DNA of 14,898 nt from a virus (taxonomy: Duplodnaviria; Heunggongvirae; Uroviricota; Caudoviricetes), in IMG/VR virus record IMGVR_UViG_2663762992_000011; one strand, given 5' to 3'. Made by a program: the position numbers and the translations under genes. Each line of letters opens with the position of its first letter. The first letter of the stretch is position 1. Positions 3,835 to 14,898 of the stretch are shown here, piece by piece. A model generated the notes under the pieces. That model saw only the letters and a program-made list of their open reading frames with translations. It did no database searches and was not told the origin of the DNA.

Positions 3835-6591
3835 ATGCGAAACATTGATCTTATCCGTCAGGTTATCAGTGCGTCTGAAAACAACTGGCCTCATGTGCTG
3901 GGCTGCCTGAACATAAATGTCCCTGACTCTCCGCGCCGTCATGCTCCCTGCCCTGCATGTGGGGGCAAAGATCGATTCCGGTTCGATGACAACGGGCGCG
4001 GTAGCTTCATCTGTAATCAGTGCGGCGCTGGTGATGGGCTGGATTTAATTAAACGCGTAAATAACTGCGACACAACAGAGGCGGCGCTGCTTGCCGCTGA
4101 TGTTCTGGGTATTGATTACCGGACAACGGAAACACCAGAAGCCACCAGCCAGAAACGGGAACAACTGGAAACCGAGCGCCAGCGACGCGAACAGGAGCGC
4201 CTGAAAAGGGCGGAGAAGGACGAACAACAAAGACGGGATACGTTTTCCCGTCAGTTTGATGACATGCGCAGAAAGGCTGTAAACGGCAAATCTGATTATC
4301 TGGTTGCGAAAGGGGTAGGTGATTTTACATTCCCCGTGTTGCCCGATGGATCTCTGTTGCTGGCGCTGGTGGATAAATCCGGCGCAGTCACAGCAGCACA
4401 GACTATTACCTCACATGGTGAAAAAAGACTCCTGACAGGTTCAGCAAAGCGGGGGGCATATCACGCCATAAACGCACCAGAAACAACACAGAGCATCTTA
4501 ATCGCAGAAGGGCTGGCAACGGCATTATCTGCCCATTTAATTCGTCCAGAGGCGCTGACAGTGGCGGCGATTGATGCCGGGAACCTGTTATATGTCGCCC
4601 AGGTACTGCGGGATAAATTTCCTTCAGCACAAATCATCATTGCTGCGGATAACGACCACAGCGAAGGAAGACAAAACACGGGGAGAATAGCAGCAGAAAA
4701 AGCAGCTTTATCTGTTTCTGGATGGGTGGCATTACCCCCGACAGGTCACAAAGCAGACTGGAATGATTACCACCAAAAACACGGCATTAAATGCGCCACA
4801 GAAGCGTTCAATAAGTCAATGTACCAACCACAGGGTAATGGCGTGAAACAGGAGCCACAGACCATTGAGGGAAGCGATTTTAAGGTTATGGATACCGACC
4901 CACTGAAACCAAGAATAGAAAGCCGCGAGGATGGTATTTATTGGGTATCTCCGAGAGCTGACAGCCAGAGTGGAGAAATCATCAATAACGAAAGCTGGTT
5001 ATGTTCTCCGTTAAGCGTTATCGGTACTGGCAGAGACGATAAAGACCAGTATCTCATTCTTCGCTGGCTGTCGTTTGGTTCTGAAACGCCGACAACCGCT
5101 GCCATTCCACTGGCTGATATTGGTGAACGTGAAGGATGGCGCACACTTAAAGCTGGTGGGGTAAATGTCACGACCAAAAGCAGCCTCAGAGCAATACTGG
5201 CAGACTGGCTACAACGCAGTGGCTCTCGTGAATTGTGGCGTGTTGCTCATGCCACTGGCTGGCAATGCGGAGCGTACATCATGCCTGATGGGGAAATCAT
5301 CGGAACACCTGAAAATCCTGTGCTGTTCAGCGGGAGAAGCTCAGCCGCAGCCGGATATACCGTCTCAGGGAGCGCGAAAAGCTGGCGTGATAACGTGGCG
5401 CGTCTGGCCTTTGGTAACTATTCAATGATGACCGGGATCGGCGCAGCACTGGCAGCGCCATTGATTGGGCTGGTGGGCGCTGACGGGTTCGGCATTCATT
5501 TCTATGAGCAGTCGAGCGCGGGTAAGACCACCACGGCAAACGTGGCGAGCAGCTTATACGGCAACCCTGATTTACTGCGGCTGACGTGGTACGGAACCGC
5601 GCTGGGGCTGGCAAATGAGGCCGCCGCCCACAATGACGGATTAATGCCGCTTGATGAAGTTGGTCAGGGCGCTGATCCTGTCAGCGTTTCACAGTCTGCC
5701 TATGCGTTATTTAACGGTGTAGGGAAACTGCAAGGCGCTAAAGATGGTGGAAACCGGGATCTAAAACGCTGGCGTACAGTGGCAATCAGCACCGGAGAAA
5801 TGGATTTAGAAACATTTATCGCTACTTCCGGGCGAAAAACCAAAGCCGGGCAACTGGTGCGACTGCTGAATATTCCGTTGAGTAAAGCAGTACGCTTTCA
5901 CGATTACCAGAACGGAAAACAGCACGCAGACGCACTGAAAGACGCTTACCAGCATCACCATGGCGCAGCCGGGCGTGAGTGGATTAAATGGCTGGCAGAC
6001 CACCAGCAACAGGCTATTAAAACTGTTCGTGATTGCGAAAGCAGATGGAGAAGCCTGATCCCATCCGATTATGGTGAGCAGGTTCACCGTGTAGCCGCGC
6101 GATTTGCCATTCTGGAGGCCGCATTGTTGTTAGGCGAGGTTGTAACAGGCTGGGATGCTCAGACATGCCGTGATGCGATACAGCACAGCTATAACGCATG
6201 GTTGCGCGAGTTCGGCACAGGTAACAAAGAGCATCAGCAGATTATTGAACAAACGGAGGCATTTCTTAATGCCTATGGGCTTAGCCGTTTTGCACCATTT
6301 CCATACACCCCGGCAGATTTGCCCATCAAAGATTTAGCCGGATACCGTCAGCGTGGAGAACATGACGAAAGTCCAATGATTTTCTACACATTCCCGGCCA
6401 CATTTGAAAAGGAGATCGCATGTGGTTTCAACGCAAAACAGTTTGCTGAAGTGTTGAAAAAAGCCGGGATGCTAACCCCACCAAACAGCGGTCGTGGATA
6501 CCAAAGAAAATCACCACGTATTCAGGGACGACAAATAAACGTTTATGTACTCAATTACCAGCCAGGAGATTACAACTCATCTGAAGAATGA
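3835..6591 (+). CDS. P4 alpha-like DNA primase-helicase (zinc-ribbon + Toprim + P-loop NTPase, 918 aa)
   Basis: N-terminal CxxC...CxxC zinc ribbon (CPACGG...CNQCG). Toprim-like motifs (ILIAEG ... IIIAADNDHSEGRQNTG with a DxD). Walker A-like SSAGKTT and Walker B-like LMPLDEVGQG in the C-terminal half. RBS-like GGGGG before the ATG at 3835. Iterons lie immediately downstream. Confidence 0.9.
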   Translation: MRNIDLIRQVISASENNWPHVLGCLNINVPDSPRRHAPCPACGGKDRFRFDDNGRGSFICNQCGAGDGLDLIKRVNNCDTTEAALLAADVLGIDYRTTETPEATSQKREQLETERQRREQERLKRAEKDEQQRRDTFSRQFDDMRRKAVNGKSDYLVAKGVGDFTFPVLPDGSLLLALVDKSGAVTAAQTITSHGEKRLLTGSAKRGAYHAINAPETTQSILIAEGLATALSAHLIRPEALTVAAIDAGNLLYVAQVLRDKFPSAQIIIAADNDHSEGRQNTGRIAAEKAALSVSGWVALPPTGHKADWNDYHQKHGIKCATEAFNKSMYQPQGNGVKQEPQTIEGSDFKVMDTDPLKPRIESREDGIYWVSPRADSQSGEIINNESWLCSPLSVIGTGRDDKDQYLILRWLSFGSETPTTAAIPLADIGEREGWRTLKAGGVNVTTKSSLRAILADWLQRSGSRELWRVAHATGWQCGAYIMPDGEIIGTPENPVLFSGRSSAAAGYTVSGSAKSWRDNVARLAFGNYSMMTGIGAALAAPLIGLVGADGFGIHFYEQSSAGKTTTANVASSLYGNPDLLRLTWYGTALGLANEAAAHNDGLMPLDEVGQGADPVSVSQSAYALFNGVGKLQGAKDGGNRDLKRWRTVAISTGEMDLETFIATSGRKTKAGQLVRLLNIPLSKAVRFHDYQNGKQHADALKDAYQHHHGAAGREWIKWLADHQQQAIKTVRDCESRWRSLIPSDYGEQVHRVAARFAILEAALLLGEVVTGWDAQTCRDAIQHSYNAWLREFGTGNKEHQQIIEQTEAFLNAYGLSRFAPFPYTPADLPIKDLAGYRQRGEHDESPMIFYTFPATFEKEIACGFNAKQFAEVLKKAGMLTPPNSGRGYQRKSPRIQGRQINVYVLNYQPGDYNSSEE

Positions 6592-6616
6592 GCTTATTCA
6601 TGTGCGTAGAAAAGGT

Positions 6617-6727
6617 GTTGGTTCAGTTGGTTCAGTTGGTTCAATTTGTAAAGAGTATTGTTTTATAAGGATTTTATTCTTTTTATTGAACCAACACTGA
6701 ACCAACAACACGGTATTTTGAACCAAC
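6617..6727. repeat. Iteron cluster 1 (candidate replication origin / crr-like site)
   Basis: Three tandem GTTGGTTCA (6617-6625, 6626-6634, 6635-6643), an AT-rich spacer (6644-6687), then three inverted copies TGAACCAAC (6688-6696, 6698-6706, 6719-6727). Located 26 bp after the primase stop. Confidence 0.75.
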
Positions 6728-7046
6728 ACAATGTGACTGAATTGATGCGCACAACACCTGGCTGGCATCAGAGAGTGTTTTACGAGACTTTCGTAAAATC
6801 CTGTGTACAAGGGCGTGACGTTTTGAAAGTGAGCAATACGAAATTTTCGTAGTTCAGAAAACAGCCCCTGAGAAGTTGTTATGCCTGTTCAGCAAACCAT
6901 CCGCATAGCTGATCGCGAATCAAATTACCAATGGAGTCAGAAGCAAGGGCAGAACTGAAAAGCGCCTGCCGTGAAGAGTAATGCGACACCATAAATATAG
7001 TTTTTAGAGTCCATAAAAAACCTGTCAAAACCTGACATACAGAACG

Positions 7047-7079
7047 ATGCCACCAGCTACTGAACGGTGGCATTTTTTT
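7047..7079 (+). terminator. Rho-independent terminator (ATGCCACC ... GGTGGCAT followed by a T-run)
   Basis: 8-bp perfect stem, 11-nt loop, six T residues (7074-7079). Confidence 0.6.
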
Positions 7080-7143
7080 GTGCTATTTGTTTCATGTTTT
7101 GCAATCATAATGATGAATGTTGCGTTTTATGAAACTATAATGA

Positions 7144-7159
7144 CTGTTGTTTTATACAG
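7144..7159. promoter_or_regulatory. LexA-box-like site CTGT-N8-ACAG (CTGTTGTTTTATACAG)
   Basis: Perfect CTGT/ACAG half-sites with an 8-nt T/A-rich spacer, 16 bp upstream of the ATG at 7175 and just downstream of a TATAAT hexamer (7136-7141). Resembles known SOS boxes such as uvrB-type; heterology index not computed. Confidence 0.35.
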
Positions 7160-7174
7160 TTCTAAGGGGGCATT

Positions 7175-7348
7175 ATGGCTATTTCAGTAAAGCCAGTATT
7201 GATAAGTGAGAAGCAAATGGAAGCGATAAAGAAAATTCAGGAGGAGCAGCGTAAAAAATCAGAGGTAGGAGTTGCGCCAACGATCCACGAAATTGCTCGG
7301 GGATTAATGGATAAGGCGCTGGCTTACACTTTAACTGGACGTGGGTAA
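7175..7348 (+). CDS. Small protein (57 aa), possibly a ribbon-helix-helix-type regulator; absent from the ORF track (below size cut-off)
   Basis: Strong RBS AAGGGGG 4 nt before the ATG at 7175, stop TAA at 7346-7348. Product MAISVKPVLISEKQMEAIKKIQEEQRKKSEVGVAPTIHEIARGLMDKALAYTLTGRG has a strand-helix-helix-like pattern. It directly precedes the large two-gene cargo operon. Confidence 0.45.
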   Translation: MAISVKPVLISEKQMEAIKKIQEEQRKKSEVGVAPTIHEIARGLMDKALAYTLTGRG

Positions 7349-7352
7349 ATTT

Positions 7353-8819
7353 ATGGCTACGTGGCAACAGGGTATTAATTCTGGTGGTTTTCTGGCTGGC
7401 ATTGGTGCGCAAAACGAGAATGCGCCAAAGGCAAGCGACATTAACACAACGCTTGGTCTGATCCGCGAAAACAATGAACTGGCTCGATCAGGTGCAAATA
7501 ACGTTGGTCTGACCGCGTTACGTGGTCTGGCTGGAGTTGCTGATATTTATAAGCAGCAGCAACAGCAGGAACGTAAAGCGGCATTCCAGAAAGGTTATGC
7601 GGATGCTTATGCGTCCGGCGACAGGGAGCAGATGCGTAATCTTATTACAGCATTCCCCGAAGAGTTTGAGGAAGTTCGTAAAGGCATGGGGTATGTCGAT
7701 GACGCCCAGCGGAATGATTTTGGCAATCTGGCGCTTAAGGCTCAGGTCGCTTCGTCGCTTGGTCCGGGTGCATTTGGCAGGTTCATGATGGATAACGAAA
7801 AGGAGATGCGTCGTTTAGGTATCCCTCCAGAAACTATTGCTGAAATGCAGGTTAATGACCCGCAGGGCTTCCAGCATTTCGCAGGTAATCTGGCGCTGTT
7901 TTCTCTCGGTCATGAGAAGTACTTCGATATCAAAGATCGAATGGAAGGTCGGGATATTGAGCGTGGCAAGTTGGCAGAAACAATCCGCAGCAATCAGGCT
8001 GGCGAAGCACTTCAGGCGAGAGGGCAGGATATTAGCCGAGCAAATGCGTTAACGTCAGCATATGCACCAACAGCAGCAATGCAGAATTACAATCAGTACG
8101 CTCAAATGTTAAAGGCGGATCCAGAGGGGGCGGCGGCATTTGCGGCAGCGGCTGGAATTAATACAAACGCCAAAAAATTAATGAGTGTTAGAGAAAACGA
8201 TGATGGCACTGTCACAAAATACTACACAGACGGAAGTGAAGAGCATGGAAAACTAAACCAGCCAATATCTGGAGATGGGTTTCGTCCAATAGCTTTGCCA
8301 ACAGCCCAAAAGATCATGGAAAAGTCGCCAGAAGGGGCTAAAAAAGCTGCTGGATTTGCATACAGAGTTAGGGATGCTCTTGATTCAATGGATACACTGA
8401 AAGGCCAGCTTAGCCCACAGCGAGTGGCGATCATTAATAATGCTTTGGGTAATGGGACGCTGGCTAACTTAACGCTCAGCCCAACAGAGCAGCAATACGT
8501 TGTTAATGCTAATGACGCAATAATGGCAATACTCCGTCAGGAAACAGGGGCAGCTATCGTACCTGCTGAAATGTCAAAATATTATCAAATGTATTTCCCT
8601 CAGCCTGGCGACTCCACAAAAACCATTGATACCAAGCGCCGGAAGATGGAAAACCAGTTCAATTCGCTGAAAGCTGCTTCTGGTCGAGCTTATGATGCTT
8701 TGCGGGTTATTTCAGCAGTTGACAGAGGGACTTCTTCTTCGTCGCAGACATTGCCGCAATCTGAGCAGGTATCACAGCCAGCAGCCAGCAGTAATTTTTC
8801 TTCACTATGGGGTGATTAA
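7353..8819 (+). CDS. Hypothetical protein (488 aa), Ala/Gln-rich, no recognised domain
   Basis: Long ORF (track 7341..8819; ATG at 7353 preferred). Its stop overlaps the start of the next gene (TAATGG). Composition is low-complexity and helical-looking with an S-rich C-terminus; no catalytic motif noticed. Confidence 0.7.
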   Translation: MATWQQGINSGGFLAGIGAQNENAPKASDINTTLGLIRENNELARSGANNVGLTALRGLAGVADIYKQQQQQERKAAFQKGYADAYASGDREQMRNLITAFPEEFEEVRKGMGYVDDAQRNDFGNLALKAQVASSLGPGAFGRFMMDNEKEMRRLGIPPETIAEMQVNDPQGFQHFAGNLALFSLGHEKYFDIKDRMEGRDIERGKLAETIRSNQAGEALQARGQDISRANALTSAYAPTAAMQNYNQYAQMLKADPEGAAAFAAAAGINTNAKKLMSVRENDDGTVTKYYTDGSEEHGKLNQPISGDGFRPIALPTAQKIMEKSPEGAKKAAGFAYRVRDALDSMDTLKGQLSPQRVAIINNALGNGTLANLTLSPTEQQYVVNANDAIMAILRQETGAAIVPAEMSKYYQMYFPQPGDSTKTIDTKRRKMENQFNSLKAASGRAYDALRVISAVDRGTSSSSQTLPQSEQVSQPAASSNFSSLWGD

Positions 8820-10924
8820 TGGCTAAAGCATGGAAAGATGTTATCGCCTCTCCACAGTATCAGGCGTTAGCACCAGAGCAAAAAGCGCAGGCTCAGGAGC
8901 AATACTTCAATGAAGTCGTGGCCCCGCAAGCCGGAGAAAGTGTAGAGCAGGCTAAGCAGGCTTTTTATGCTGCCTATCCACTACCATCAACGAATGAAAT
9001 AGACCGATCCCAATCAGCAACTCAAAATATTCAACATACATCATCTGATAATTCTCTTGCGTCAGGGTATGCAAAGTTAGCTACTCAGCAAAGAGAGGGG
9101 CTTGAGCGTTCAGCAGAACAGGGAGCCAGTCTTGGGGCTGCTATGCGCGATGCTATAACAGGCGAAAGCCGAATGACTCCAGAGATGGAGAGACTGCAAA
9201 ATGTCGACCTTGCCCCAGAGTTAACCTCACTCAGCATGGATGCTCTAAAAGCTCGATGGTCTCAACTTTTCGGCTCTGACGCATCTCAGGAAAAGATTCT
9301 TCAGAGCATGGGAGCGAAATTAAGGCAGGATGAGAAGGGTAACACTATCGTTTCCCTGCCATCCGGTGATTATGCTCTGAACAAGCCGGGTTTATCGCCG
9401 CAAGACGTGGCATCGTTTCTGGCTAATGCGCTGGCGTTTACACCAGCGGGCAGGGCTGGAACGGTGCTTGGTGCCATAGGAAAATCAGCAGCTACAGATT
9501 TAGCACTACAGGGAGCCACCAGCCTTGCTGGTGGAGAAGATATTGATCCGTTACAAACGGTAATTTCTGCTGGCATTGGTGGTATTGGTAAGGGGCTGGA
9601 AAATACAGCGAGTGCGGTTTCGAGGGCTGTTCGTGGTGATATGTCGCCTGAAGCAAAGGCTGCTGTCAACTTTGCATCGGAAAGAAATCTGCCGTTAATG
9701 ACCAGTGACATGCTGAAAGATAAAACCTTTATGCAGAGTCAGGCTCAGACATTAGGCGAAAGAGTTCCTTTTTTTGGAACCGGTAAGAATCGGCTGAATC
9801 AACAACAAGCACGAGAAAATTTAGTCAGAACATTTAGCGATGGTCTGGGTGGCATTTCTGATAAACAGCTTTATGAATCTGCGACTAAAGGGCAACAAAA
9901 ATTCATTGAGGCAGCAGGAAAGCGATATAACCGCATAATTGACGCTATGGGGGATACCCCTGTCGATCTCTCAAACACGGTAAAAGCTATCGACAATCAG
10001 ATTGCCGTGTTAAGCCGCCCGGGAAAATCTCAGGATAGAGCCGCGGTAAAAGTCTTGCAGCAATTTAAAGACGATATCACCAGCGGACCAAATGACCTGC
10101 GTCTGGCGAGGGAAAACAGAACCGATCTTCGAAAGCGATTTATGGCGTCATCTGACACTGTTGATAAAGATACGCTCCAGAAAGCCAGCGATATTATCTA
10201 CAAGGCATATACGGCGGATATGAAAAAAGCCGTAGCCAAAAATCTTGGAGCAGACGAAGCCATTAATATGGCAAGGGTTGATCGCTCATGGTCTAAATTC
10301 AATGACATGATGGGAAGAACGCGCGTTCAAAAGGCAATAGCCAGCGGCAAGGCCACGCCTGAGGATGTAACAAAACTCGTTTTTAGCCAAAGCCCATCAG
10401 AACGTTCTCAGCTTTACAGGCTTCTGGATGACAATGGTAGGCAAAACGCACGAGCAGCCATAGTTCAGAATGCTGTAGATAAGGCGACTGATCCGTCTGG
10501 AAATATCAGTGTTGAGAAGTTTATTAATGCGTTACACCGGAACAGGAAGCAATCAGCAACTTTCTTTAAAGGCGTACATGGAAAGGAACTGGACGGCGTT
10601 ATTAAATACCTCAACGATACAAGACACGCGGCAAAAGCGAACGTTCAAAACTTAAATGGTCAGCAGCTTTATGGATTGTTAGTTGGTGGTGGCATCATAA
10701 ACGCAGCAGTATTAGCGGGGATGCTAAAAACGGCTGCGTTTGTTGTTCCTGCTGCTGGTGCCGTAGGCGGAGCCGCGAAGGCATACGAAAGCCCTGTTAT
10801 ACGAAATGCCTTGTTACGTCTGGCAAATACGCCAAAAGGTAGCACAGCATATGACAGAGCGATCAGTACGGTCACACAATCACTGACCACAGCAGCACAA
10901 GCATCGCAAAAGGAAGCTCAATAA
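8819..10924 (+). CDS. Hypothetical protein (701 aa) with a C-terminal Gly/Ala-rich hydrophobic hairpin-like segment
   Basis: Long ORF coupled to the upstream gene. Near the C-terminus, LLVGGGIINAAVLAGMLKTAAFVVPAAGAVGGAA forms two hydrophobic Gly/Ala-zipper stretches split by KT. The rest is hydrophilic and Ala/Gln/Lys-rich. No family recognised. Confidence 0.75.
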   Translation: MAKAWKDVIASPQYQALAPEQKAQAQEQYFNEVVAPQAGESVEQAKQAFYAAYPLPSTNEIDRSQSATQNIQHTSSDNSLASGYAKLATQQREGLERSAEQGASLGAAMRDAITGESRMTPEMERLQNVDLAPELTSLSMDALKARWSQLFGSDASQEKILQSMGAKLRQDEKGNTIVSLPSGDYALNKPGLSPQDVASFLANALAFTPAGRAGTVLGAIGKSAATDLALQGATSLAGGEDIDPLQTVISAGIGGIGKGLENTASAVSRAVRGDMSPEAKAAVNFASERNLPLMTSDMLKDKTFMQSQAQTLGERVPFFGTGKNRLNQQQARENLVRTFSDGLGGISDKQLYESATKGQQKFIEAAGKRYNRIIDAMGDTPVDLSNTVKAIDNQIAVLSRPGKSQDRAAVKVLQQFKDDITSGPNDLRLARENRTDLRKRFMASSDTVDKDTLQKASDIIYKAYTADMKKAVAKNLGADEAINMARVDRSWSKFNDMMGRTRVQKAIASGKATPEDVTKLVFSQSPSERSQLYRLLDDNGRQNARAAIVQNAVDKATDPSGNISVEKFINALHRNRKQSATFFKGVHGKELDGVIKYLNDTRHAAKANVQNLNGQQLYGLLVGGGIINAAVLAGMLKTAAFVVPAAGAVGGAAKAYESPVIRNALLRLANTPKGSTAYDRAISTVTQSLTTAAQASQKEAQ

Positions 10925-10985: not shown

Positions 10986-11384
10986 TTAACACTTGCCTTT
11001 AACATTGCCGACAAATGAGCCTGTAAATGAGCCTATATCAGATCGACTAATTGTTCGTGTATGGATCACTTTTCCGTCATTTGAGATTGCCCATGTGACA
11101 AGCGTCAGTTGACCATCTCGATAGCTTCTCCCCATCATGGCATTCGGAGATAGCGGGTAATAATCAATACCTCCACCTATACCATCTTTTGCCAAGATAA
11201 GATCCGCCTTCTCTTTACTTATTACCAAATGAAATGTATCTGGTATAGATGATAACTTATAGTTATACCCATCTGAACTTGAGGCTTCTTGTCCTTTCAG
11301 ATCACCAATAATCCAGCATTCAGCGTTCGCTCCAAAAGAAGCAAATAATAAACCGGAGACAACCAATCGCTTCAATTGATTCAC
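10986..11384 (-). CDS. Small secreted (signal-peptide) protein, about 132 aa precursor, function unknown
   Basis: Minus-strand ORF (track 10986..11453). Preferred start is GTG at 11384, preceded by AAAGGGAGGG with a 5-nt spacer, giving a textbook signal peptide MNQLKRLVVSGLLFASFGANA followed by ECW. AT-rich gene, convergent with the 701-aa gene. Confidence 0.55.
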   Translation of the reverse strand: MNQLKRLVVSGLLFASFGANAECWIIGDLKGQEASSSDGYNYKLSSIPDTFHLVISKEKADLILAKDGIGGGIDYYPLSPNAMMGRSYRDGQLTLVTWAISNDGKVIHTRTISRSDIGSFTGSFVGNVKGKC

Positions 11385-11500
11385 ACCAACCCTCCCTTTA
11401 GCGTTGTTTAGAATGGCAATCATCATATATCCAAGACATGGCATTTGGTACATAGCTTGGGTCGGGATTTCAAATCCGCTCCCAGTTGATGGGGCCGTTA

Positions 11501-11935
11501 CAGTACGCGCATATCCGCTTTATGTGAAACAGGAAGATTTTTCTGATATCACTGCCACAGCAAAACACCAATTTCGTGACCAGTACGCGCGCGAGGGGTA
11601 TCAGTTGCAAAAATTTTGCAACTACGTCCGACCAGTACGCACACAATGGCGGGGAGCACCATAAAAGCGTTCTCTACATGAGACAGAGTGGTGGTGATGT
11701 GTTGATTATCGGCGTATATGCGCACAGGACGCGCTATGACAATGTTTTATGCGGGTACACCAATCACATGTATCTGGTGTGATAAATCGCGTTACATGAC
11801 ATCTCATGTTGTGCTGGTGGTTATAACGACGTTCTGAATCTGGCCTTTGCCTGATATTTTGCGACAAGTACGCGCGCGTAGCATCGACAGCATACACATT
11901 GGATATTCATTTTGTGACCAATGCGATAAGTAGCG
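11501..11935. repeat. Dispersed family of about 20-bp repeats (approx. ATTTyGyGACCArTACGCGCGCG); a further copy at 13502-13527
   Basis: Copies at about 11501-11512, 11572-11593, 11626-11642, 11857-11880 (containing the perfect palindrome TACGCGCGCGTA) and 11910-11935, plus 13502-13527. On the minus strand several copies translate to variants of the C-terminus (...LIPLxxxLVTK) of the small ORF 11907..12065. Confidence 0.4.
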
Positions 11936-12712: not shown

Positions 12713-12765
12713 GCTCAAATATCAGCCAGAAAATAACGGACCAATCACAAATCTATCGCTGTGTT

Positions 12766-12886
12766 GTTGGTTCAGAGCTGGGCTGTGTTGGTTCAAAATG
12801 AGTTGATGTTGGTTCAATATTTTAGAAAAAACACAATAAAAACAACGCTCTTTACAAATTGAACCAACTGAACCAACTGAACCAAC
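12766..12886. repeat. Iteron cluster 2 (candidate crr/ori-like site), mirror image of cluster 1
   Basis: Three spaced GTTGGTTCA (12766-12774, 12787-12795, 12808-12816), an AT-rich spacer (12817-12859), then three tandem TGAACCAAC (12860-12868, 12869-12877, 12878-12886). This is the reverse-complement arrangement of cluster 1. Confidence 0.75.
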
Positions 12887-12922
12887 ACCTTTTTGCTTAT
12901 CTATATAATCTGAGAGGCAGAA

Positions 12923-13364: not shown

Positions 13365-13886
13365 TCATCGTGCAAATTTGCACTCTGCCAGCCAACGCAT
13401 TTTTTCGTTGGCGGGAATATCAGGTATTTACTGATTCTGCCGACTCACAAGGATGCGAGAACCTTATAAAACCTAATATCGCAGAGCTTAATTGTGTACA
13501 GCAATTTCACGAGCAATACGCGCGCACAGGACAACGAGCCTGAACATGGTTACACACCTCAATCATGAGGGATGTAGGTAATGGCTTCAGACCAAAGCAA
13601 CCAAAATAGCTTCGGCCAGCGCGTAAAACGCTCTTGGTAGAAACTCGATGAACTGGATGATGAGCACAACACAAGAAGAATTGTGATTATCACAATAGAG
13701 GCAAAATTATGCCCACACCTTCAATTGCGCGGATAACACCAGAAAAAACTGTGTACATAAGGGTGTACATAATCAAAAACCGCATTAGAAAGAAACCAGC
13801 TACAATGCGGCATTGAAGCCAATACTCTACAAACAGATCCAACATTGAATAACTCGTAACGCCAATTCTTCCTTTTCAGCCTTCAC

Positions 13887-14010: not shown

Positions 14011-14030
14011 AACTGTATATAAACACAGTT
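14011..14030. promoter_or_regulatory. LexA box of dinD (AACTGTATATAAACACAGTT)
   Basis: CTGT-N8-ACAG with an AT-rich spacer, embedded in a longer palindrome (TACAACTGT...ACAGTTGTA). Near-identical to the dinD SOS box as I remember it. Sits 44 bp upstream of the dinD ATG. Confidence 0.8.
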
Positions 14031-14073
14031 GTAGACTTACTTTCCTTGCAATCGATATCACATGGAGTGGGCA

Positions 14074-14898
14074 ATGAACGAACATCATCAACCTTTTGAA
14101 GAGATAAAGCTGATTAATGCAAACGGAGCAGAACAATGGTCAGCAAGACAACTTGGAAAACTACTGGGTTATTCAGAGTATCGTCACTTTATACCTGTAT
14201 TAACGCGCGCCAAAGAAGCTTGTCTGAATAGTGGTCACACAATTGATGACCATTTCGAGGAGATCCTCGATATGGTCAAAATTGGCTCAAATGCCAAAAG
14301 AGCATTAAAAGACATCGTACTCTCCCGCTATGCCTGTTACCTGGTAGTACAAAACGGCGACCCTGCGAAACCGGTTATTGCGGCAGGACAAACTTATTTT
14401 GCTATCCAGACCCGACGGCAGGAGCTGGCTGACGATGAAGCTTTCAGGCAACTTCGTGAAGACGAAAAGCGTCTTTTTCTGAGAAATGAGTTGAAAGAAC
14501 ATAACAAACAATTAGTTGAGGCAGCGCAGCAAGCTGGGGTAGCGACAGCTATCGATTTCGCCATATTTCAGAATCATGGTTACCGGGGACTGTATGGTGG
14601 ATTAGATCAGAAAGCCATCCATCAGCGGAAGGGGCTGAAAAAGAGTCAGAAGATCCTGGATCATATGGGTTCAATAGAACTGGCGGCTAATCTCTTTCGA
14701 GCTACCCAAACAGAAGAAAAACTCAAGCGGGATGGCGTGAATTCAAAACAGCAAGCTAATACCACACACTTTGACGTGGGTAGCAAGGTGAGGCAAACCA
14801 TTCAGGAACTTGGCGGAACCATGCCTGAGGAGTTGCCGACCCCGCAGGTCAGCATCAAGCAGTTGGAAAACAGTGTAAAAATTACAGAGAAGAAATAG
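14074..14898 (+). CDS. dinD: DNA damage-inducible protein D
   Basis: ATG at 14074 with GGAG RBS gives a 274-aa product starting MNEHHQPFEEIKLINANGAEQWSARQLGKLLGYSEYRHFIPVLTRAKEACLNSGH. Length and N-terminus are consistent with enterobacterial DinD, and it is preceded by a canonical LexA box. Stop TAG is the last codon of the window. Confidence 0.85.
   Translation: MNEHHQPFEEIKLINANGAEQWSARQLGKLLGYSEYRHFIPVLTRAKEACLNSGHTIDDHFEEILDMVKIGSNAKRALKDIVLSRYACYLVVQNGDPAKPVIAAGQTYFAIQTRRQELADDEAFRQLREDEKRLFLRNELKEHNKQLVEAAQQAGVATAIDFAIFQNHGYRGLYGGLDQKAIHQRKGLKKSQKILDHMGSIELAANLFRATQTEEKLKRDGVNSKQQANTTHFDVGSKVRQTIQELGGTMPEELPTPQVSIKQLENSVKITEKK

Follow-up and report, generated by a model that had tools for sequence, protein, structure and literature searches.

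Results

The operon encodes homologs of two P22 ejection proteins

We analysed IMG/VR virus record IMGVR_UViG_2663762992_000011, a 14,898-nt stretch of Caudoviricetes DNA that is referred to as the window throughout. The window corresponds to a ~16-kb island found between yicC and dinD in complete Escherichia coli genomes. It carries a compact operon, hereafter the cassette, which consists of a 57-amino acid (aa) leader open reading frame (ORF) and two large ORFs of 488 and 701 aa (Table 1). A first-pass annotation of the window, made from the sequence without database searches, had found no recognisable family motif in the two large proteins and had put the operon forward as an undescribed system, possibly a defence or abortive-infection module, a toxin, or an element-encoded injected or structural protein. 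The ORFs and the translational coupling that it described were confirmed. The two large ORFs overlap by 1 nt (TAATG at 8817-8821), and 4 nt separate the end of the leader ORF from the ATG of the 488-aa ORF; the mechanically called version of the latter begins at a GTG at 7341 and has 492 aa.

Table 1. Coordinates of the cassette and of flanking island features in the window
Feature	Position	Strand	Remark
P4-alpha-like primase/helicase (Zn-ribbon, Toprim, DUF927)	3835-6591	+	island replication core; defines the family that has the cassettes
Iteron cluster 1, GTTGGTTCA units in both orientations	6615-6729		just after the primase gene; ori-like
Terminator-like hairpin and T-run	7056-7078	+	GCTACTGAACGGTGGC, then ATTTTTTTGT
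-10 hexamer TATAAT of the cassette promoter	7136-7141	+	by sequence inspection
LexA-box-like palindrome GACTGTTGTTTTATACAGTT	7142-7161		core CTGT-N8-ACAG at 7144-7159, CTGTTGTTTTATACAG
57-aa leader ORF of the cassette	7175-7348	+	
488-aa P22 gp20 homolog	7353 (ATG)-8819	+	
701-aa P22 gp16 homolog	8819-10924	+	
146-aa gene, convergent to gp16	10986-11426	-	155 aa (10986-11453) from the first ATG
Iteron cluster 2, GTTGGTTCA units in both orientations	12762-12888		crr-like second replication site

The 488-aa protein matches the Pfam family PF16928 (Inj_translocase, ‘DNA/protein translocase of phage P22 injectosome’) with an E-value of 7e-85 and a score of 284.6 bits against a cut-off of 29.7. The match extends over aa 12-228 and covers profile positions 1-217 of 218. 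The protein also matches phrog_917 over its full length (E 5e-147). It is a mosaic of a phage-like N-terminal half and a C-terminal half of another, APSE-like sequence type. Residues 1-234 are 58% identical to gp20 of Escherichia phage N7 (Lederbergvirus), with aa 1-60 near-identical, and aa 1-253 are 87% identical to gp20 of the P22-like prophage L004. APSE is the closest phage match for the C-terminal half, with 52% identity over aa 50-455. The gene is located directly upstream of the coupled gp16 gene, the same order as in P22, N7 and prophage L004. Judged by its sequence, the 488-aa protein is a homolog of the P22 ejection protein gp20 and would form the periplasmic tube of the DNA conduit.

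The 701-aa protein matches phrog_770, annotated as ‘DNA transfer protein’, over aa 19-700 (E 3e-161). It is 68% identical over 634 aa to gp16 of phage N7, and its residues 69-701 are 93.5% identical to gp16 of prophage L004. The identity to P22 gp16 is about 30% over aa 210-683. The first 68 aa represent a sequence type unlike the N7 and L004 alleles, and hydropathy analysis indicates a hydrophobic, Gly/Ala-rich segment at about aa 616-650. No Pfam family was matched by this protein at E ≤ 0.01, and the gp16 family model PF26808 gives a weak or faint match even for the homologs in Serratia and in the related locus L017. The gp16 family is very divergent, with 22-26% identity between phages (PMC10883804), and the assignment therefore rests on PHROG and pairwise evidence. 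The 701-aa protein is a homolog of P22 gp16, a putative ejection protein that likely provides the inner-membrane part of the conduit.

In P22, N7 and L004 the genes are arranged in the order 14-7-20-16 within the late operon. Prophage L004 is located at tRNA-Arg and appears intact over the fetched stretch, from terminase to tailspike and integrase. The window has a variant of the cassette without gp7 and gp14; a tblastn search with N7 gp7 against the window and the 57-aa ORF gave a best E-value of 0.48. Against 50,697 phage records, tblastn with the two cassette proteins found mostly P22-like phages and their relatives, such as APSE, and the gp16 query also found Vibrio phages. RefSeq already names the proteins ‘phage DNA ejection protein’ and ‘injection protein / P22-gp16 family’. 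The cassette proteins have no match in NCBIfam, gp20 and gp16 matched no solved structure by sequence, and eight proteins, drawn from the cassette and elsewhere in the window, gave 0 matches in PADLOC-DB.

The profile searches that the first-pass annotation had proposed thus contradict its statement that a family motif is missing, with matches to PF16928, phrog_917 and phrog_770. It had also said that the idea of an undescribed system would fall if both proteins were clearly homologous to ordinary phage structural proteins (tape measure, ejection or scaffold) with conserved synteny in complete phage genomes. Both are clear homologs of ordinary ejection proteins, the synteny is conserved, and the proteins have names in RefSeq; the idea has therefore to be given up. 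Among the options that it listed, an injected or structural protein is what the genes encode according to homology. Taken singly, the genes are ordinary and already named. It is their location that is unusual.

The two genes appear to be maintained. Five copies of the cassette were compared (the window and the related loci L001, L003, L019 and L020), and the ORFs are intact in all of them. The ratio of nonsynonymous to synonymous substitution rates (dN/dS) is 0.12-0.32 for gp20, 0.05-0.19 for gp16 and 0.13 for the small leader ORF. The window gp16 is almost identical to that of L003 (synonymous rate dS 0.012), whereas the window gp20 differs from it (dS 0.31), and the nucleotide identity to P22-like prophages is mosaic and reaches 95%. 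These patterns point to recombination inside the cassette and with P22-like prophages. Long stretches share 87-93% identity with prophage alleles and are therefore interchangeable with functional phage genes.

The cassette is located in a P4-like island

The first-pass annotation had placed the operon in a P4-like island between two iteron clusters. Both statements are borne out (Table 1). From the left, the island encodes an integrase, a hypothetical protein, AlpA, a second hypothetical protein, AntA, a DUF4222 protein, Ash, an Icd-like protein, small ORFs and the primase. The cassette follows, and after it come the convergent 146-aa gene, further small ORFs and PerC. The integrase and AlpA genes are just left of the window and were seen in L001. 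The element has an integrase/AlpA/primase backbone and no virion gene recognised outside the cassette; it is a satellite-type island and not a phage. Family scans of the window and L001 ORFs recognised no capsid, portal, terminase, tail or lysis gene in the island. Among the same ORFs there is no psu, delta or sid, and the P2/P4 cos 19-mer is absent even with three mismatches allowed. A P2-dependent P4 element was ruled out on these grounds, and since neither the Psu-Delta-Sid module nor cos was found, we do not file the island as a strict P4-like satellite.

Coverage of the window by any single phage record is at most 7%. At a coverage of at least 80%, the whole window is found in 186 of 5426 complete E. 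coli genomes and the operon in 315, or about 6%, at no fewer than two insertion sites. The same backbone also occupies a second insertion site near pao/yagU (L003 and L019). In strain HB37 (NZ_CP053080; L020) two islands are present in tandem at yicC-dinD; one contains the gene set 14-7-20-16 with a frameshifted gp7, and the other matches the window with ~95% coverage and 95.8% identity. In strain E67 (NZ_CP121155; L019) a DUF5906 replicase replaces the Toprim/DUF927 protein next to the same small ORF, gp20, gp16 and 146-aa block. The cassette therefore moves as a module that is independent of the replicase.

A putative promoter with a LexA-box-like site precedes the cassette

The terminator-like hairpin upstream of the cassette, called with its T-run at 7056-7071, is kept in L001 and L003. 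It closes the primase/iteron region, and the cassette is therefore its own transcription unit. By inspection, the -10 hexamer is preceded at a spacing of 17 nt by a weak -35 element (ATGAAT, 7113-7118), and the promoter scan did not call the TATAAT because of this poor -35. The sequence (A)CTATAAT or TTATAAT is present at the same position in most of the first 34 related loci. The -10 is degenerate in three of these loci, L015 and L016 (ACAACAAT) and L034. Upstream of the -10, TTGCAAT or TTGCG(A/T)T and (T)TTTCAT motifs recur at 7098-7135 and in the counterpart regions of all related loci, across genera. They may be operators for an activator or a repressor, perhaps the 57-aa protein.

The CTGT-N8-ACAG site that the first-pass annotation had noticed at the likely promoter adjoins the -10. 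The 20-nt box begins one base after the hexamer, and the TATAAT ends three bases before the CTGT core. CTGT-N8-ACAG has two matches in the window, where 0.21 would be expected; two were reached in 3 of 200 shuffled sequences. The box was scored with a weight matrix, as had been suggested. For this purpose a matrix, not a curated one, was derived from 20 known E. coli LexA boxes; with it, the cassette box scores 18.0 bits and falls within the range of the known boxes (12.7-25.8 bits for the training boxes and 7.5-26.5 in leave-one-out scoring). A score of 18 bits is reached anywhere in 1% of shuffled windows. Only one site in the window ranks higher, the second CTGT-N8-ACAG copy at 14011-14030 (core at 14013, AACTGTATATAAACACAGTT, 23.6 bits). 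This is the box of the host gene dinD (14062-14898) and precedes that gene by 34 nt. The Bro-N match of the last ORF in the window is dinD itself, at the right border of the island. dinD is a classical SOS gene, and its box served the LexA scan as an internal positive control. Within the gp20 coding region, at 8348-8367, a third LexA-like match scores 15.0 bits (TGCTGGATTTGCATACAGAG) and probably arose by chance.

The half-sites of the cassette box are kept in related islands while the spacers vary. The spacer is TGTTTTAT in E. coli and GTCTATAT in Serratia. In L017/18 and L046-48 it is ATCGTTAT, with either CCAG or ACAG, and the islands of Erwinia, Pantoea and Lonsdalea have ATAAAATA or GTAAAATA. 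Every P22-type cassette except that of L049 has a box of at least 14.9 bits. No LexA box was found near the ejection genes of phage N7 and prophage L004. The site shares with LexA regulon promoters such as those of dinD and uvrB the CTGT-N8-ACAG consensus, an AT-rich spacer, a position beside the -10 and a score in the known range. It differs from them in being on a mobile element, before virion-protein genes, and in having many relatives that are 1 nt shorter. We consider SOS control of the cassette in this island plausible.

The 57-aa leader ORF has 45 homologs in a collection of 5.8 billion proteins, all of them from Enterobacterales where the source names an organism, and an alignment of the family contains 21 invariant columns. 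The first-pass annotation had guessed a ribbon-helix-helix protein. The predicted fold is compatible with this guess. An AlphaFold2 model has a coil-helix-helix arrangement with helices at residues 12-28 and 37-53 and a predicted local distance difference test score of 74. The guess found no support in the searches: Foldseek against the PDB, a PDB-sequence profile search and Pfam scans of 15 family members returned nothing meaningful. By its predicted fold the protein is possibly ribbon-helix-helix-like. The leader ORF and the promoter of the cassette are not of phage origin.

The same promoter and leader precede other DNA-delivery genes in related islands

Across Enterobacterales, about 90 loci of related, primase-bearing islands have this promoter and small ORF. 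The first 34 loci were examined individually and all are beside a primase-bearing backbone. Seven diverged members of the small-ORF family are each found beside an int/AlpA/(AntA/Ash)/primase backbone as well. In a species-level scan with one genome per species, 15 further loci came from Escherichia, Leclercia, Klebsiella, Raoultella, Chimaeribacter, Pantoea, Lonsdalea, Rahnella, Erwinia, Serratia and Pectobacterium. In each of the 15, a primase homolog with 62-99% identity precedes the small ORF by 1-7 kb. Among 60 further IMG/VR loci, the primase is present within the recorded sequence in 54, and the P22 coat, portal and TerL proteins in none.

The gene after the small ORF always encodes a protein that forms, or is situated at, the DNA-delivery end of a virion. 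P22-type ejection protein cassettes occupy this position in the window and in L001, L003, L005/6, L017-21 and L036-49. Five loci (L003, L017, L018, L020 and L021) have the full P22 set of gp14 (DUF2824), gp7, gp20 and gp16 behind the small ORF. Podovirus internal virion proteins, a T7-gp14-like protein and an SLT-bearing protein, are found in L015/16, L022-24, L034 and others. A tail tape-measure protein follows a 108-aa ORF in L009/10, L013/14, L026, L027, L030, L032, L033 and L035, and L011/12 have a lytic tape-measure-like protein with Dit. The remaining class has a baseplate-hub-like protein, or a Dit-like protein annotated as ‘tail fiber’, and a TerS-like ORF often follows (L029, L072, L083 and L087). 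Ten IMG/VR loci that the reference set left untyped were placed in this hub/Dit class; L072, L083 and L087 were scanned with PHROGs and the rest were assigned by the ORF layout of L072.

The TerS-like ORFs encode 170-220 aa and follow tail-tip cassettes in islands of the Klebsiella/Raoultella type (L007, 12142-12648; L072, 11290-11811; L083, 11086-11700; L050, 11827-12480). Their N-termini resemble the helix-turn-helix of small terminases and excisionases (phrog_57, E about 1e-9), which makes them candidate packaging-redirection genes.

Defence-type cargo is also found in the related islands: Abi_2 in L005 (16650-17612) and L009 (17777-18784), RnlA/RnlB in L006 (17949-19384), and pairs of AAA_15/AAA_21 ATPases between the primase and the cassette in L007 and L011. 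This cargo is at other positions than the virion genes, and in this family the variable slots that receive defence genes are therefore distinct from the one that receives the virion-entry cassette.

Discussion

A proposed role in helper virions

We propose, with a probability of roughly 0.6, that the operon is a P22-type ejection cassette on a ~16-kb integrative and self-replicating satellite of the P4/phage-inducible chromosomal island (PICI) kind, and that its products are loaded into the virions of a helper phage. The proposal is built on the homology of the two proteins, the island context, the conservation of the promoter and leader, the swapping of cassettes, purifying selection and the LexA-box-like site. 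From these we infer LexA control, incorporation into helper virions and the resulting payoff. The context and the relatives suggest a satellite family that brings its own DNA-injection parts.

In the proposed mechanism, the cassette would have been cut from a phage late operon and given its own sigma-70 promoter with a LexA box over the start region. It would be silent in a resting cell and switched on in the SOS response. Lambdoid and P22-like prophages are induced by this response too. Because genes for a capsid, portal, terminase or tail are missing from the island, its ejection proteins could act only in the virion of a P22-like (Lederbergvirus) helper. The island gp20 and gp16 would be loaded into helper procapsids, either beside the helper’s own proteins or replacing them, and the helper would supply gp7 and gp14 for this two-gene variant. 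After adsorption the proteins would be expelled and form a trans-envelope channel for the packaged DNA, including satellite DNA. This follows the behaviour of P22 gp7, gp20 and gp16, which are carried in the virion, leave it before the DNA and build the trans-envelope conduit, and very different foreign ejection proteins can substitute for them in P22 assembly and injection (PMC10883804).

The likely payoff would be an entry route with a specificity other than that of the helper, for example insensitivity to SieA-type exclusion. In P22, the changes that confer escape from SieA fall in the C-terminal parts of gp16 and gp20 and not in gp7; the tape-measure proteins and the T7 core proteins serve as comparable conduits and are likewise targeted by exclusion proteins (PMC10883804). 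Two points fit such a benefit in exclusion or entry without proving it: exactly gp20 and gp16 are kept in the window, and the C-terminal half of gp20 is of a distinct type. The study of SieA escape (Leavitt et al., 2024; PMC10883804) concerns these two proteins, and the same protein classes fill the slot in the islands; the ejection proteins in that work are phage-encoded, whereas the island set is satellite-encoded. At ~25% identity the alignment is too unreliable to place the P22 escape residues (gp20 T338, T341 and G350; gp16 G532 and P546) on the island proteins. In a wider form of the proposal, the satellite family re-arms helper virions with a swappable ‘entry kit’, under SOS control in many lineages, so that particles could enter cells that exclude the helper, such as helper lysogens with SieA- or HK97 gp15-type systems, or enter hosts that are closed to the helper. 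We offer this wider form tentatively, and the odds are somewhat against it.

Several observations weigh against the proposal in whole or in part. No TerS, Rpp or capsid gene and no pac site was recognised in this island. Many of the island-bearing genomes have only one place that matches the operon; a P22-like prophage with similar ejection genes is therefore often not co-resident, and the helper may arrive by infection. Ejection proteins are loaded before packaging, which means that helper and satellite particles would be armed alike and that any benefit to the satellite would be indirect. As for the payoff, SieA also excluded hybrids with quite divergent ejection proteins (PMC10883804), and divergence alone is therefore no guarantee of escape. 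As for SOS control, 19 of the first 34 loci are without a good box. Most of these 19 have a palindrome that is one base shorter (CTGTATAAATATCAGG, or CTG-N9-CAG) and scores 4-10 bits. This short form, (A/G)CTGTATAAATATCAGG(G/A)G, is found in L007, L008, L011-L016, L022-L026, L029-L033 and many IMG/VR loci; it is well conserved, is located ~26 nt before the small ORF and overlaps the Shine-Dalgarno sequence. About half of the related islands carry a short or degenerate box, and SOS control is not universal in the family.

Alternative explanations

The strongest rival is assembly interference, in which the island gp20 and gp16 would enter the virions of an induced or infecting P22-like phage as dominant-negative conduit subunits, leave these particles with poor infectivity and serve as a population-level weapon against other phages or the helper. 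Satellites and prophages are known to block the assembly of a helper or an invader, as described for Tai (PMC11364771) and Tab (PMC10884400). In favour of this rival, the island proteins depart from the N7 and L004 alleles in the C-terminal half of gp20 and in aa 1-68 of gp16, and pre-expression from a LexA promoter could allow them to out-compete the helper proteins. We nevertheless regard interference as unlikely. The proteins are full-length, with purifying selection along their whole length, and segments of them are 87-93% identical to the alleles of an intact-looking prophage. Sister cassettes retain assembly partners, either gp14 and gp7 or the 108-aa ORF before the tape-measure gene. 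Poisoned particles would carry satellite DNA too. In addition, very different ejection proteins work in P22 (PMC10883804), and the PADLOC search gave 0 matches.

A slightly less probable alternative accepts the incorporation into virions and changes the payoff. In it, gp16 together with gp20 would protect or circularise the ends of headful-packaged satellite DNA, as has been proposed for abortive transductants. The P22 mutation tdx-1, reported to affect circularisation of generalized-transducing DNA, affects gp16 (PMC10883804), and the handling of incoming DNA would matter to an element of 16 kb packaged in a headful of ~40 kb. This explanation does not account for the swaps to tape-measure, baseplate-hub and Dit proteins in the relatives, nor for why the helper gp16 would be insufficient.

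It is improbable that the cassette is an inert leftover, a fragment of a P22-like late operon that was caught by recombination in a P4-like island and has no role. The intact ORFs and the dN/dS values of 0.05-0.32 in the five compared copies, the presence of the operon in about 6% of E. coli genomes, the dedicated and conserved promoter and leader ORF, which did not come from a phage, and the analogous virion genes of other phage types in the same slot in at least 15 species all argue for a function, whereas recent recombination, indicated by the mosaic identity of up to 95% with P22-like prophages, and the one copy with a frameshifted gp7 are what a leftover would be expected to show. The least probable explanation is the SOS-induced defence or abortive-infection module or toxin of the first-pass annotation, for example a gp16 that inserts into the membrane and kills the damaged cell in the manner of LexA-controlled colicin/lysis operons: the LexA-box-like site on the promoter, the membrane association of gp16 homologs (PMC10883804), the hydrophobic segment of the island gp16 and the Abi_2 and RnlAB cargo of related islands would suit it, but the proteins are orthodox virion ejection proteins with no match to a defence family in PADLOC, the tape-measure, core, hub and Dit proteins in the same slot make no sense as toxins, and phage infection is not generally an SOS trigger.

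Comparison with known phages and satellites

The cassette shares with P22 the homology of gp20 and gp16, the order of 20 then 16, their tight coupling and a mosaic variability that is usual for such genes. In both, gene 16 is followed by a gene on the reverse strand, which in P22 is sieA. The genes for the coat, portal, terminase, gp4/10/26 and tailspike of P22 are absent from the island, and its variant of the cassette also lacks gp7 and gp14. The ejection genes of P22 are part of the late operon, whereas the island cassette has its own promoter, LexA-box-like site and leader ORF.

With P4 the island shares the integrase, AlpA, the alpha-type Zn-ribbon/Toprim/DUF927 primase, the ori/crr-like iterons, Ash, the Icd-like protein and a size of ~16 kb. 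It differs from P4 in the absence of a recognisable psu, delta, sid or P2/P4 cos, and its cargo points to P22-like rather than P2-like helpers; P4 itself carries no ejection or tail genes. Like a Gram-negative PICI, the island has an int-alpA-primase backbone, falls within the size range of about 10-20 kb and is inserted site-specifically; unlike one, it has no recognised TerS, Rpp or capsid gene and carries virion ejection genes. The nearest concept is that of the capsid-forming PICIs (cf-PICIs), which have the same backbone, encode part of the virion and steal the rest (PMC10085698). These elements make capsids and connectors and steal tails. The island family does the reverse and encodes only the DNA-conduit or tail-tip parts.

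Satellites have been described as stealing capsids (P4, SaPI and PLE) or tails (cf-PICI), and detection rules assume that they carry essentially no tail or structural genes. In the open-access full-text literature we found no description of a satellite-encoded ejection or tape-measure cassette, although an earlier description elsewhere is possible. What makes the finding significant is the pattern across the related islands rather than this operon by itself. The only virion genes of the family are envelope-crossing parts, swapped to match helper morphotypes. If the proposal is correct, satellite hijacking extends to the DNA-delivery step, and satellites would alter the entry specificity and the exclusion sensitivity of transducing particles. 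This would be relevant to gene exchange among E. coli, Klebsiella, Serratia and Enterobacterales that live with plants, and the islands would offer a natural system for the recruitment of foreign ejection and tape-measure proteins into virions. It would also mean a blind spot in satellite censuses. In SatelliteFinder, tail and holin profiles are ‘forbidden’ for PICI and cf-PICI, and there are 80 tail profiles (PMC10085698). The relatives with tape-measure, hub or Dit proteins may be absent from satellite censuses if they match those 80 profiles.

Neighbouring genes and repeats

The 146-aa gene is always beside gp16 in the E. coli islands. Its product has a signal-peptide-like N-terminus, belongs to phrog_2651 and is ~30% identical to the product of a repressor-adjacent gene of Sf6 (gp38), 434 and HK446, and also to that of a gene around 14.0-14.4 kb in phage Emek. 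A SieA homolog was considered, given that P22 sieA has the same position, and was rejected (BLASTP E 1.7). The gene is possibly an exclusion or moron gene expressed in the lysogen.

An antirepressor of the AntA/AntB family is encoded in the early region of the island (493-1326). Like P22 Ant and P4 epsilon, it could act to derepress a helper prophage of the lambdoid or P22-like type that is resident in the cell. Direct repeats of 10-28 nt around (G)ACCAGTACGCGCGC are present in six copies at 11501-11882 and 13498-13530, in the largely non-coding region behind the cassette and again towards the right-hand end of the island. They are possible regulator sites, a pac-like signal or a remnant.

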